This document shows positions 21,494 through 31,524 of a stretch of 64,000 nt of DNA, one piece after another; within the stretch, counting starts at the first letter, position 1; every line of letters starts with the position of its first letter. The position numbers and the translations under genes are program-made. The stretch comes from Candidatus Bathyarchaeota archaeon. Lineage in GTDB: Archaea; Thermoproteota; Bathyarchaeia; Bathyarchaeales; Bathycorpusculaceae. The stretch covers positions 63,620-127,619 of the forward strand of contig CAVYHV010000015.1 in assembly GCA_963768425.1 (NCBI GenBank), given 5' to 3'. Below the pieces are notes generated by a model, which saw only the letters and a program-made list of their open reading frames with translations, did no database searches and was not told the DNA's origin.

Positions 21494-21619
21494 TTATCTA
21501 GTAACTTTGAAACAGCAGTTACAGTTCATACATGTGTAGGCTTCGACACGGAAAAGCTGAGTTTCCAACATTTTGTTAGGTTCTGCAACTTCTTCGCCAC
21601 AGTTAGGGCATTTAGCCAT
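21494..21619 (-). CDS. Small Zn-ribbon protein related to 9588-9752
   Basis: MAKCPNCGEEVAEPNK...AYTCMNCNCCFKV shares the MAKCPxCGxEV start. Confidence 0.65.
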   Translation of the reverse strand: MAKCPNCGEEVAEPNKMLETQLFRVEAYTCMNCNCCFKVTR

Positions 21620-28295: not shown

Positions 28296-29000
28296 ATGGC
28301 TGTCAAGCCGACTAAACCCGCAGACTATAAAGAAGTAAACTACACATCGGCACGTTGGGAGCTGCTGCGTGAGCTTCGGGGCGAAGCGGCTTGGGTTATG
28401 TCAGCTTTGGAAGCTTTTCATTTGCAGTCAATTACGCATGGAAGCTTAGCCAGAGGCAACGTTAAGAAGGGAAGCGACGTGGACGTGTTCATCGGTGAAG
28501 TGCAGAACAGCTTCCTTGTGGAAACCGCATTGGAAAAAGCAGGTGTTCCGGTTAACTCCAGACGTATTGTTCAAGCCACCCCGACGTACGCTATGAAGGC
28601 ACATATCGAAGTTAGTGAACGGATCACGGTCACTTTTCCCCTGATGGAGATGCGAACGGTTGAACGGGAGTTTTACCGTTTCGGCGGCGAAACAGACCTC
28701 AGACAACTCAAAGAAAGCGTTCGGGTTCCAGGCGTAGATAAGAGGTTGATGCTTATTGAACCAACAGAAACGGGTCACGTAGAAAGCAGCGTCATCGGCA
28801 AAGAACAAACTGCCGCGAAATTTCTAGGCATTTCCGCCGAAACCGTTCGTGACAGGGTTCACACCTTAATGAAAAGAGACACAACGGGAAGAACAGGTGT
28901 ATTCATTAAAAAGGAACTTATGCCTGACGAAACCTTCGAGTTAGCACTCAAAAAATTGGCTGACTTGAACCCTGCAGTTAGACGCAGAATGAAAAAATAG
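28296..29000 (+). CDS. Predicted nucleotidyltransferase (pol beta superfamily)
   Basis: HGSLARG.V...SDVDVFI, EREFY.FGG, RVPGVDKRL, GRTGVF. Confidence 0.85.
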   Translation: MAVKPTKPADYKEVNYTSARWELLRELRGEAAWVMSALEAFHLQSITHGSLARGNVKKGSDVDVFIGEVQNSFLVETALEKAGVPVNSRRIVQATPTYAMKAHIEVSERITVTFPLMEMRTVEREFYRFGGETDLRQLKESVRVPGVDKRLMLIEPTETGHVESSVIGKEQTAAKFLGISAETVRDRVHTLMKRDTTGRTGVFIKKELMPDETFELALKKLADLNPAVRRRMKK

Positions 29001-29002
29001 GT

Positions 29003-29572
29003 TTAGGGAGGTGCGGGGTAGTAGATGAGTTCTTTTTCTTCGAGTAACGCTTGGATTTTGTCGACTGCTTCGTAAACTTGTTCTTCTTTTTTCGCTCCTA
29101 CACAGACAAGTTTGCCAGCTGAGAAAATTAGGAACACGACTTTTGGCTCATCCATGCGGTAAACTGCGCCTGGGAACTGTTCAGGCTCATACATGACTTT
29201 GCTTAGCTTGTAGACAAGGCTTTCGAGGTCAATTTCGCCGCCGAGCTCTGCGGAAGCAACGATGTTTTGAATGTTAACTATTGGTTTCTCTGTAATTTGG
29301 ATGCCTTCGCCGCGAAGTTCCTTCACAACTTTTTCCACAGCGCTACGGGATTCTTTTTCTGACTTTGCGCCTGTGCAAACCATTTTGCCAGTGCCGAAAA
29401 TCAACGTGGCAGTTTTGGGTTTCTTGAGTCTGAAAACTAAGCCTGGGAAAACGCTTGGGTTGTACTCTGTCTGAGGAAACTTTTCAACTATTTTCTGTAA
29501 ATCAATTTTCTGATTAAGTGAAACAGAAGCTACAATGTTTTGTATGTTAATAATTGGTTTACGTTTACTCAT
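29003..29572 (-). CDS. tbp: TATA-box binding protein
   Basis: Two repeats of NIQNIVAS...Y.P..FPG.V.R...PK...LIF..GK.VC.GAK. Confidence 0.97.
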   Translation of the reverse strand: MSKRKPIINIQNIVASVSLNQKIDLQKIVEKFPQTEYNPSVFPGLVFRLKKPKTATLIFGTGKMVCTGAKSEKESRSAVEKVVKELRGEGIQITEKPIVNIQNIVASAELGGEIDLESLVYKLSKVMYEPEQFPGAVYRMDEPKVVFLIFSAGKLVCVGAKKEEQVYEAVDKIQALLEEKELIYYPAPP

Positions 29573-29675
29573 GACTTTTCACGGGCTTGACTATTTAAAT
29601 AGAACAGGTGGTATATAACGTAATCCCTTTATAAAGGCTTTATATATGGCGAGCCGCGGTTCTGTAACGTCTTCG

Positions 29676-29936
29676 TCAGGCTTTTCTCTGTAAACTTTCG
29701 TCTGTTCGTGCCTTCAATGGTATCATGTAGGGAATTGCTTTTCGTGGTACAACTTCAAAAGCATAAAGGATACCATCAATTCCTTGCGCTGAAACCATTT
29801 TCATGCTTTTTGTTGATACATCAATGAAATGGGTTACTTCAATTATTTTATTTCCTTTGAGTGGCACATCGCATTCATGAGCATTAAACTTTTCATCTGA
29901 AAGCAATGATTTACAGTATGAACATTTTATGATCAA
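29676..29936 (-). CDS. Small passenger protein with CxxC...HxC Zn-finger-like motif
   Basis: KCSYCKSLLSDEKFNAHEC; stop codon overlaps the left TIR. Confidence 0.6.
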   Translation of the reverse strand: MIIKCSYCKSLLSDEKFNAHECDVPLKGNKIIEVTHFIDVSTKSMKMVSAQGIDGILYAFEVVPRKAIPYMIPLKARTDESLQRKA

Positions 29937-30118
29937 GAGCCCTCTAAACCTCCCGAAATAAAACCGTCATCTTTGTTTTTGCCTTTTTTATCAAAACTGT
30001 GTAGAATTTTGTTCTCTTTTTCTAACCGCTCATTTTCTTTCGCTAACTCATTATATAGCTTTAGCGTGGGCGCTTCTTCTAGCTTGAACTTTTCTCGCCC
30101 TTCTAATCTGACTACCAT
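29933..30118 (-). CDS. Small coiled-coil passenger protein
   Basis: 61 aa; GAGGT RBS-like sequence; 4-bp stop/start overlap with the next ORF. Confidence 0.5.
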   Translation of the reverse strand: MVVRLEGREKFKLEEAPTLKLYNELAKENERLEKENKILHSFDKKGKNKDDGFISGGLEGS

Positions 30119-30292
30119 AACTAGAACCTCTTTGACCTGAATAACTCAAATTTAATCATCCTCAATAGAAAAATAATGGAGCAGACGAAAGTTTACATGG
30201 AGAAGAAACAGACGAAGACGTTACAGAACCCGAGCCGCCGCCAATTAGCGTCAAAAAATCTGATCCTCAGATTGTTCTTCGGCGTCGCCACT

Positions 30293-31368
30293 TTATTGGT
30301 AGAGCGGGAACCTTAGCAAGGCTGCGATGCCTCCTAGACTTAGGAGTTTTGCTCCTGCTTCATGTTCTGTGCTGATTACGTTTACGTTTGCACGGCGCCT
30401 CTCCGCTTCCCGCATGAGTCCCTCAAGCTTTAGCCGCTGCGCTTCGTCGGCATCGCGAATAGCTGTGTCTGCAATCACAAGTTTCTCAACTGCTCCCAAA
30501 TTGACTGCGTTCTCCACAGAATCAAACCCATAGGTTACTGTGCCTTCGCCTTTGCCAAGCCGCTTCATGACTTCCTCGATGGACTCCATTTCCTCCAAGA
30601 AGCGAAGTTTGTGGGAAGCCTTCAACAAAACACCGCTGCGCAATGCTTCGTCGATGCCTGCTGTTCCGCCGTTATTGACGCTTTTGATGTCAGCGACACA
30701 TTTGGATATTTCCGGGGCTTCTTCATTTAGGTATCTTACGAAGTCAGTTTTGACGTAACCAGCGCCTATGATAACGATTGGGTTGCGGTTTGGGGTCCAA
30801 AGTTTCTCGAGGCTGTTCAAAGCCAAGCGAAAGTATGCTTTTGTTGCTTCTACCCGTTTGTCAGCTTCATGTTTTCCGGGGAGCCGCATGCGTTGTTCCA
30901 CTCGGGTTTCGTACCCGTACTGTTTGGTTTCTGCTATGGCGAAGCCTTCGTCGTCGATCGAAATTATCAGCATAGGTTTCTCGGTTTGACTTGCTTTCTC
31001 AAGTCTGTCTAGCAGGTGAGCTGCCACTCGGTCTTTACAATAGTCACAGGTTTATCGAGCGAAATACTTAGTGTGTGATGGGCTCCGGTGGGGATGATGT
31101 CAGGTGCATGGCAGATTAATCCGTGGACGCGCAGCCTGCCGAGGAATTTGTCCCAACTGACCGATTCCACTTTGACCCCCATAAAAGCGGAAACACGTTC
31201 GGCGCTTTTCGGACGACTCGTTTCAGTGTCGCTTTTTATGGCTCTACTGCTGTATGCGTAGACCTCATCGCTCTTGTAAATGACGTTGTAGAGGTGCCAC
31301 AAGTCATCCGGCGAGTCAGGAACCACTTTGACGAAACCTTGCCGCAGGTTTTTCTCGATAATCTTCAC
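30293..31368 (-). CDS. pelA: Pelota ribosome rescue factor (one base missing at ~31025)
   Basis: DDLWHLYNVI, RLRVHG.I, G.HHTL, then TYG and STEHEAGAKLLSLGGIAALLRF; adding one base after GAGTGG joins both ORFs into 358 aa. Confidence 0.92.
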
Positions 31369-31524
31369 AACACGCACTTCTAGTGAGGCTAATTGCGCAC
31401 AAAGAAATAAAAACATATTACTGCTTTGTTTTCAAAACCAGAATCTTTCAAACAAGCGCAAACCAATTTGTGGACAAACCTTAAATTTTCCTATTTCCCT
31501 AGTTTATCTGTTAACTATTTTTAG

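Follow-up and report, generated by a model that had tools for sequence, protein, structure and literature searches.

Introduction

The closest described relatives of the element reported here belong to the IS6 family. In the portions of Varani et al. 2021 (PMC7986276) used here, IS6 members are mostly 700-890 bp long with one ORF of 213-254 aa and 8-bp repeats; two of them are MITEs, of 227 and 336 bp, and just one carries a passenger gene. Archaeal IS6 elements are placed there in Halobacteria, Thermococcales, Methanococcales and Sulfolobales. The portions used of Harmer and Hall 2019 (PMC6807381) give GGTTCTGTTGCAAA as the bacterial end consensus, with G1, G2 and G7 conserved, and treat both archaeal and long clostridial elements as doubtful members of the IS6/IS26 family. 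Elements of the type described below are not listed for Bathyarchaeia or Methanosarcina in these portions of PMC7986276 and PMC6807381, and the only full-text literature match for Bathyarchae, IS6 and transposase together was an unrelated CRISPR classification paper.

Here we analysed a stretch of 64,000 nucleotides from a Candidatus Bathyarchaeota archaeon (the window), in which a sequence-only reading had picked out a small transposase-less segment upstream of tbp and taken it for a recently inserted element carrying passenger genes. Our results make it very probable that the segment arose by internal deletion from an archaeal IS6-like family, as a non-autonomous derivative that landed recently just beyond the tbp promoter.

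Results

A small element with perfect ends upstream of tbp

The element occupies 29658..30230 of the window (573 bp, no strand assigned) and is bounded by terminal inverted repeats (TIRs) and by an 8-bp target-site duplication, CGAGCCGC, the two unstranded 8-bp copies of which lie at 29650..29657 on the left and 30231..30238 on the right. The outer terminal repeat, GGTTCTGTAACGTCTTCGTC, is found at 29658..29677 on the plus strand and, as its reverse complement, at 30211..30230 on the minus strand. These 20-bp copies are perfectly inverted, with 0 mismatches, and the number of matches expected from 100 shuffles of the window was 0. Further in, a 16-nt repeat, TGTAAACTTTCGTCTG, with the form TGTAAAC...TCGTCTG, lies at 29689..29704 (plus strand) and has its perfect complement at 30182..30197 (minus strand). 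The outer and inner repeats are presumed to be a first and a second site for the transposase.

The gene for the TATA-binding protein, tbp (29003..29572, minus strand; Pfam TBP, 212.8 bits, E 4e-64), is downstream of the insertion, and 85 nt separate its ATG from the TIR tip. The other neighbour, pelA (Pelota), is also on the minus strand. Within the element are two small ORFs of 61 and 86 aa, both on the minus strand and coupled by an ATGA overlap. The sequence-only reading had described the two pairs of repeats, the exact duplication, the coupled ORFs and a position about 85 bp upstream of the tbp start, and all were present as described. Its view of the element as non-autonomous also held, as neither the ORF list nor Pfam revealed a transposase in it. 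The 573-bp element is single-copy in its own genome (G000), where the other matches belong to a different full-length element and to a relic. A scan of 29300-30600 against Rfam, with E up to 1, gave 0 matches to known RNA families. Elsewhere in the window, a lone sequence that differs from the terminal repeat at 3 positions (GGTTCTGCAACTTCTTCGCC) lies at 21579-21598 without a partner and is probably either a chance match or a very old relic.

The empty site had further been described as a hairpin. A TGGCG/CGCCA hairpin is indeed present in the sequence, but the spacer sequences of other species do not conserve it at the same place; it was therefore given no weight and dropped as a target signal.

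The insertion is recent

Among the sampled relatives the closest is G095, which is 96.5% identical across the tbp region. It aligns to the window at 28919-29657 and at 30231-30298, and as these two alignments overlap by 8 nt, G095 has a single copy of CGAGCCGC. Its empty site reads ...TATATATGGCGAGCCGCCGCCAATTAG..., precise and with one copy of the 8-mer, exactly as had been predicted from the occupied site. Because the closest sampled relative retains such a site, the insertion is, on this comparison, recent and later than the split from the G095 lineage, as the sequence-only reading had proposed. The segment is accordingly not fixed in all relatives, and the search for an empty pelA-tbp site that the reading had suggested was answered in G095.

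The tbp-pelA spacer was taken from 14 genomes of the same genus. It measures 115-238 bp in 8 of them, and the window spacer, less the element and one 8-mer, measures 139 bp. Contigs from three public runs, belonging to different studies, bridge the left or right occupied junction with 0-1 differences; the insertion is therefore no assembly artefact. The empty allele was not seen in the contigs of 4 runs, the low, thin and partial cover of which cannot show fixation.

Other differences were noted around these genes. G095 has about 257 extra bases beside the pelA stop codon (L070, reverse strand, 799-1055) that are absent from the window. Pelota is one open frame in G095, G019, G003 and G020 and is split in the window into two overlapping minus-strand ORFs, 31009..31416 and 30293..31027 (overlap 31009-31027), owing to a 1-nt gap relative to G095 (GAGTGG-CAGC against GAGTGGCCAAG). 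One contig of run X4 has an indel at 31020-31022 with a net gain of 1 nt, and the split is either a real frameshift or a consensus error. In G002 (L025) and G010 (L026) the tbp-pelA spacer has an insert of 3.3-4 kb with a gene for an 811-812-aa putative secreted protein; no family end, allowing up to 5 mismatches to the window tip, was found in these two spacers.

The 86-aa ORF is a gene of the family, the 61-aa ORF probably a deletion by-product

By homology to ORFs of the family's end module, the 86-aa ORF (29676..29936, minus strand) encodes a small Cys/His-motif protein of that module. It is 47-66% identical to 8 relatives, drawn from full-length elements and database proteins, and their alignment has 16 invariant columns; the best end-module protein match is 72% identical, and 66% over the full length. 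In 5 other elements its relatives adjoin a TIR (tblastn), and at 12 of 21 metagenome loci a TIR follows within 150 nt. In these relatives the terminal repeat itself codes for the tail, ...KTDEDVTE; in the window the ORF ends sooner, within the spacer that separates the two end sites and is shortened there. No Pfam or NCBIfam family was found for either the 86-aa or the 61-aa ORF. An AlphaFold model of the 86-aa protein, built with 9 sequences, had a mean pLDDT of 70.1 and a pTM of 0.37, and Foldseek gave no PDB match to it at E <= 0.001 (best E 0.37); we therefore give it no fold assignment.

The 61-aa ORF (29933..30118, minus strand) is likely a by-product of the deletion. Its codons 1-22 lie out of frame over the 5' end of a gene for a small basic protein, the remnant of which (30051..30149, minus strand) comprises 32 codons (MSYSGQRGSSYGSQIRRARKVQARRSAHAKAI, then a stop) and is 74% identical over 34 residues to a 159-aa protein of C9, a relative in the same genome. 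As the real frame there is this 32-codon ORF, the first third of the 61-aa ORF is an out-of-frame rendering of the truncated gene. From 30054 on, the right 177 bp of the element correspond to that end of the C9, G056 and G082 elements at which the small basic protein is encoded, and the start of this DNA homology, at 30054-30055, marks the deletion junction. For the 61-aa tail, comparison with the coiled-coil gene that precedes the end-module gene elsewhere gave BLASTP E values of 25 and 38, and there were 5 weak tblastn matches (E 0.03-0.7), all just upstream of a match to the end-module gene; the tail may descend from that coiled-coil gene. Positions 29940-30053 had no significant match. The small basic protein has no Pfam match, and its 159-aa C9 version none above the Pfam cut-off and none in NCBIfam; the coiled-coil proteins of the family gave only sub-threshold coiled-coil noise in Pfam.

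A layout like that of the parent, holding both modules kept by the window copy, is seen in G082:C207b. From one end to the other this element has a membrane protein, a small basic protein (67 aa), a second membrane protein, the transposase (377 aa), an AbrB-like protein (59 aa), a coiled-coil protein (146 aa) and the end-module protein, which reads out through the terminal repeat. The sequence-only reading had taken the two ORFs for passenger genes. Foreign cargo they are not: the 86-aa ORF is the family's own end-module gene and the first third of the 61-aa ORF a truncated gene read out of frame. Nor does the window element hold a type II toxin-antitoxin pair; the AbrB/MazE-like gene occurs in full-length copies only.

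A family of long IS6-like elements

The terminal pattern, searched with at most 1 mismatch in a sample of 81 genomes of the genus, gave 106 matches in 39 of them, against 17 matches for a reversed control. Perfect 8-bp duplications flank 13 elements (1105-6051 bp) besides that of the window. End pairs lacking a duplication were G049:C19 and a 196-bp pair in G021. Full-length copies are 2165-6051 bp long, with at least 4 ORFs, and encode a transposase of 371-401 aa that combines SWIM, zinc-ribbon and IS6-type DDE domains. Most of the full-length copies examined also encode an AbrB-like protein, and the accessory genes are variable.

The C9 element is 3275 bp long, with a perfect 8-bp duplication (CTTAAAGA) and inverted ends of 63 nt that are 90% complementary. 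Its 371-aa transposase matches Pfam DDE_Tnp_IS240 (64.6 bits) and SWIM (23.5 bits) and has an IS1/IS1595-type zinc domain too. A second full-length relative scored 57.6 bits for DDE_Tnp_IS240, for which the cut-off is 27. With the NCBIfam IS6 model (NF033587) the C9 protein aligns over model positions 1-201 of 202 (E 4.8e-34), and its score of 117.8 bits is below the cut-off of 125, yet this is by far the best IS family model. The element further encodes an AbrB/MazE-like protein (PF04014, 25.0 bits), a membrane protein and the 159-aa protein. Besides this intact transposase gene, the genome has a broken one on C17 and a 65-aa fragment on C3. The C17 locus (181948-184194; L002) is a decayed copy in which an AbrB-like gene accompanies the broken transposase gene and the small basic protein gene is frameshifted, and no recognisable ends were found there; the fragment lies separately at C3:14128-14322.

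Across the class, this type of transposase was found in 16 of 79 genera (19 of 151 genomes). With an E limit of 1e-10 its database relatives number 5512, some of them labelled 'IS6 family transposase [Candidatus Bathyarchaeota archaeon]', and the exact 20-base tip of the window element adjoins a 60%-identical transposase in a Bathyarchaeota MAG. The copy at locus L086 that has this exact tip carries, 1.1 kb further in, a full-length family transposase, and its ends are of the window type. The same tip and the same two-site end layout occur in Methanosarcina/Methanosarcinaceae records (L085, L088, L089), and the family therefore crosses archaeal phyla. In one of these, a Methanosarcina sp. record (L085 180-2020), the ends enclose 1841 bp without a transposase but with an AbrB-like match, and the duplication agrees at 7 of 8 positions. 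The sequence-only reading had held that a want of other TIR copies or of a cognate transposase, together with fixation in all relatives, would count against it; other TIR copies and a related transposase exist. The genome-wide search for an autonomous partner that it proposed was answered in part: family copies and a related transposase were found, but no transposase with ends matching the window subtype is present in this genome.

Two co-varying sites at each end

Alignment of 30 ends from 15 elements showed that the family ends are about 50-60 nt long and hold two related sites each, with the consensus GGTTCTGTnAnnTCTnCGTCTG for the outer and TGTnAnnnnTCGTCTG for the inner site. The tip is GGTTCTGT in 27 of the 30 ends, so that the GG start and the G at position 7 typical of IS6 are present. 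The distance from the tip to the start of the inner site is either 32-35 or 44-45 nt. These two spacings differ by about one helical turn, the longer being found at ends through which the end-module ORF reads out; the end-module end of the window element combines the short spacing with the premature stop.

The variable base after TGT is identical in the outer and inner site in 28 of the 30 ends. When shuffled 2000 times, agreement averaged 10.2 with a maximum of 19, figures that are not to be read as a probability as the ends are related to one another. This pattern suggests two binding sites per end that would be recognised by one element-specific DNA-binding domain.

The co-varying bases also define subtypes of ends, which for outer/inner sites read TGTAACG/TGTAAAC in the window element and TGTGAAG/TGTGAAA in C9. 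As the only intact transposase of the genome, that of C9, goes with the other subtype, the window copy is probably without a cognate enzyme and would now be an immobile orphan. Were the C9 transposase able to act on ends of the window subtype, the copy would still be mobile. The outer 20 nt of the two elements agree at 17 of 20 positions, the right 177 bp of the window element are 74% identical to the C9 end, and the backbone of both sites (GGTTCTGT...TCGTC) is common to the two. However, the co-varying outer and inner bases differ between them, which suggests subtype-specific recognition, and the window element is present in only one copy in the genome. We therefore regard cross-action by C9 as rather unlikely, and the orphan state as the probable one.

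Recurrent landing sites

The tbp-upstream position is not peculiar to the window. Family ends are found at the homologous position in 6 of 70 genomes with a tbp ortholog, namely the window genome, G015, G020, G021, G049 and G053. In G015, G049 and G020 exactly 10 nt separate the last TATA-like box of the tbp promoter from the start of the family end. G021 and G053 have degenerate end relics at the same position, and in G053 a later end lies just past the relic. Aligned to empty sites, the window 8-mer is offset by about 1 nt from the position used in the other genomes. Right ends were not found for the tbp-site elements of G015, G020B, G053 and G049, which are one-ended or run off the contig.

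It could be supposed from this distribution, and from the one-ended and decayed state of several of the tbp-site elements, that all descend from one ancestral insertion shared with G020, G015, G021, G053 and G049, so that the window copy would be an old, vertically inherited relic. However, G095 as the closest relative has an intact empty site, and the TIRs and duplication of the window copy are perfect. Furthermore, a tbp+pelA tree built for 15 genomes scatters the occupied ones, with starred branches that force at least 3 changes, and the tbp-site elements vary in gene content and orientation and fall into at least 5 end subtypes. An old relic is thus highly improbable. On sequence comparison, two events at the tbp site are unambiguous: the de novo arrival of the window copy, as seen against G095, and that of the element G020A, whose perfect duplication consists of the same 8 bases that lie beside a resident element.

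Tip-to-tip pairs with exactly 8 bp between them were seen in G020 (L024 4976-5023), G003:C1 (L074 5655-5702) and G082:C207 (L083 2169-2216). In G020 and G082 these 8 bp are a copy of a perfect duplication, and so one element had inserted into the 8-mer at the tip of the other; for the G003 pair no far ends were found.

An Sm-like (LSm) gene has another recurrent site in its upstream region, which in G056 is 76 nt from the ATG and 5 nt from a TTTTATAT box. Elements occupy it in G056, in G044, in G082 (two of them) and in one metagenome contig, and probably in G084; the loci recorded for this site are L082 3226-3547 (G056:C8), L083 5514-5830 (G082:C207) and L100 1094-1253. Both copies of the duplication read GTCTTTCA in G056 and CTGTTTCA in G082. 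That the duplications differ between the genomes and are perfect within each suggests that, once the species had diverged, each received its own insertion in the homologous 8-mer.

Together, the recurrent tbp and Sm-like sites suggest that insertion is directed next to promoters. Of 12 loci, 5 have a TTTAWA box no more than 16 nt from the duplication, compared with 5.3% of random G000 intergenic positions (binomial p 0.0002), but this limit was picked after the data were seen; narrowing the flank to 8 nt leaves 1 of 12 (p 0.32). As the limit was chosen post hoc, we treat promoter-directed targeting as a hypothesis. A fixed distance from TATA box to duplication was considered and rejected: the two are 2 nt apart at tbp but 5 nt apart at the Sm-like gene, and several loci have no box. 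Tentatively, promoter architecture may be what guides the family to its targets, with insertion inside a TATA-like box or a few bases distal to it and possibly through capture of DNA that TBP/TFB has bent or marked; the three tip-to-tip pairs also speak for such a choice.

The tbp promoter

A conserved block of about 66 nt with three TATA-like boxes (29573..29638, minus strand), alignable in 14 of 14 relatives extracted, makes up the tbp promoter. The insertion lies just beyond this block and leaves it intact. Over the promoter block and retained flank, the window and G095 differ at one base. Both element ORFs face tbp, and on the minus strand no run of 5 or more T was found between the stop of the 86-aa ORF and the tbp ATG. 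Read-through from the element ORFs into tbp is possible. In the RNA runs listed, at most 0.08 of the sampled words were present.

These features invite the view that the segment has become a domesticated module, in which a retained internal promoter would drive the 61-aa and 86-aa ORFs and read through into tbp, the insertion having been kept for changed tbp expression or for a useful 86-aa protein. Consistent with such a role are the direction of both ORFs and the T-run-free stretch before tbp, the intact state of the 86-aa ORF, whose family is conserved in its 16 invariant columns, and the occurrence of occupied junctions in the contigs of all three bridging runs with none from an empty site. 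However, the 86-aa ORF has been shortened relative to its relatives by the stop in the end spacer, the promoter block is that of G095 bar one base, and the contigs are of a depth too low to show fixation. Domestication is accordingly unlikely, and we prefer to see in the segment a deletion derivative.

Discussion

A plausible course of events can be drawn from the anatomy of the family. The window copy still has both ends, the 86-aa end-module gene and the opening 32 codons of the gene for the small basic protein, whereas the middle of a layout such as that of G082:C207b, with its transposase and AbrB-like genes, has been lost. Insertion, through an 8-bp staggered cut, would have needed a cognate transposase acting in trans and bound at each end to both the outer and the inner site. 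After the split from the G095 lineage, the copy landed just distal to the tbp promoter, at a position that the family hits recurrently. As this genome offers no transposase with matching ends, we infer the mobilisation in trans from family anatomy. The direct parent of the window element is not among the sampled genomes. Of the replicative transposition through cointegrates that is typical of IS6/IS26 elements, only possible end products, namely simple insertions with duplications, are visible here.

The affinity to IS6 that the sequence-only reading had proposed is borne out by full-length relatives that have a DDE_Tnp_IS240 domain, an NCBIfam IS6-type transposase and 8-bp duplications, and by the termini, the first 8 bases of which equal the bacterial IS6/IS26 consensus as given in the portions of PMC6807381 used here. 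With IS26, IS257/IS431 and IS6100, as far as these are covered by the same sources, the family shares the DDE type, the duplications and the terminal GGTTCTGT. It differs from them in its length of 2.2-6 kb, where IS6 copies are compact (about 0.7-0.9 kb) with one ORF, and in its transposase, which exceeds the usual 213-254 aa and has N-terminal SWIM and zinc-ribbon domains. Its ends of about 50-60 nt with two sites, and its several accessory genes, set it further apart from IS6/IS26.

In being small and without a transposase between IS6-type ends, the window element resembles MITEBth2 and MITEHarch3, the two MITEs of 227 and 336 bp in the portions of PMC7986276 and PMC6807381 considered. Like a MITE it is short (573 bp), with TIRs and a duplication. 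Unlike these two it still has two ORFs, of which one is a conserved gene of the family, and it is single-copy, whereas a MITE has no coding capacity and is amplified in its genome. It is therefore better described as a deletion derivative than as part of an amplified MITE family.

Longer transposases with extra N-terminal zinc-binding domains are also described for the clostridial IS6-like clades h/i (VII/VIII), and ISDsp3 is the one IS6 member reported with a passenger gene (PMC7986276 and PMC6807381, in the portions used). These long clostridial elements and ISDsp3 are set apart by their descriptions there as bacterial elements of 1.2-1.8 kb with at most one passenger gene, and the word 'SWIM' has 0 occurrences in PMC6807381. 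With the archaeal IS6 clades the present family shares archaeal hosts and a TIR consensus longer than the bacterial 14 bp (PMC7986276 and PMC6807381, same portions), but the archaeal elements covered in PMC7986276 are of about 700-750 bp. The family is thus a variant of the IS6 kind with an unusual anatomy, and the window element itself an ordinary non-autonomous derivative of it.

What is unusual for an IS6-type family is the long SWIM transposase, the two co-varying sites per end and an ORF that reads through the terminal repeat, along with several passenger genes where the portions of PMC7986276 and PMC6807381 used here credit only one IS6 member with a passenger gene. For this genome, the segment upstream of tbp is an ordinary, well-behaved mobile-element insertion.

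The wider interest of the locus lies in where the family lands. Targeted integration is known in eukaryotes from Ty3 and Tf1. If the recurrent promoter-upstream positions reflect true target choice, the tbp promoter with its three TATA-like boxes and the Sm-like promoter would be species-spanning hotspots, and integration directed to promoters in Archaea would be a functional analogue of Ty3 or Tf1 targeting. Should the target choice prove true, the recurrent sites would provide a testable case of promoter-directed transposition in Archaea, and studies of tbp regulation would gain a natural set of tbp promoters with and without an element.
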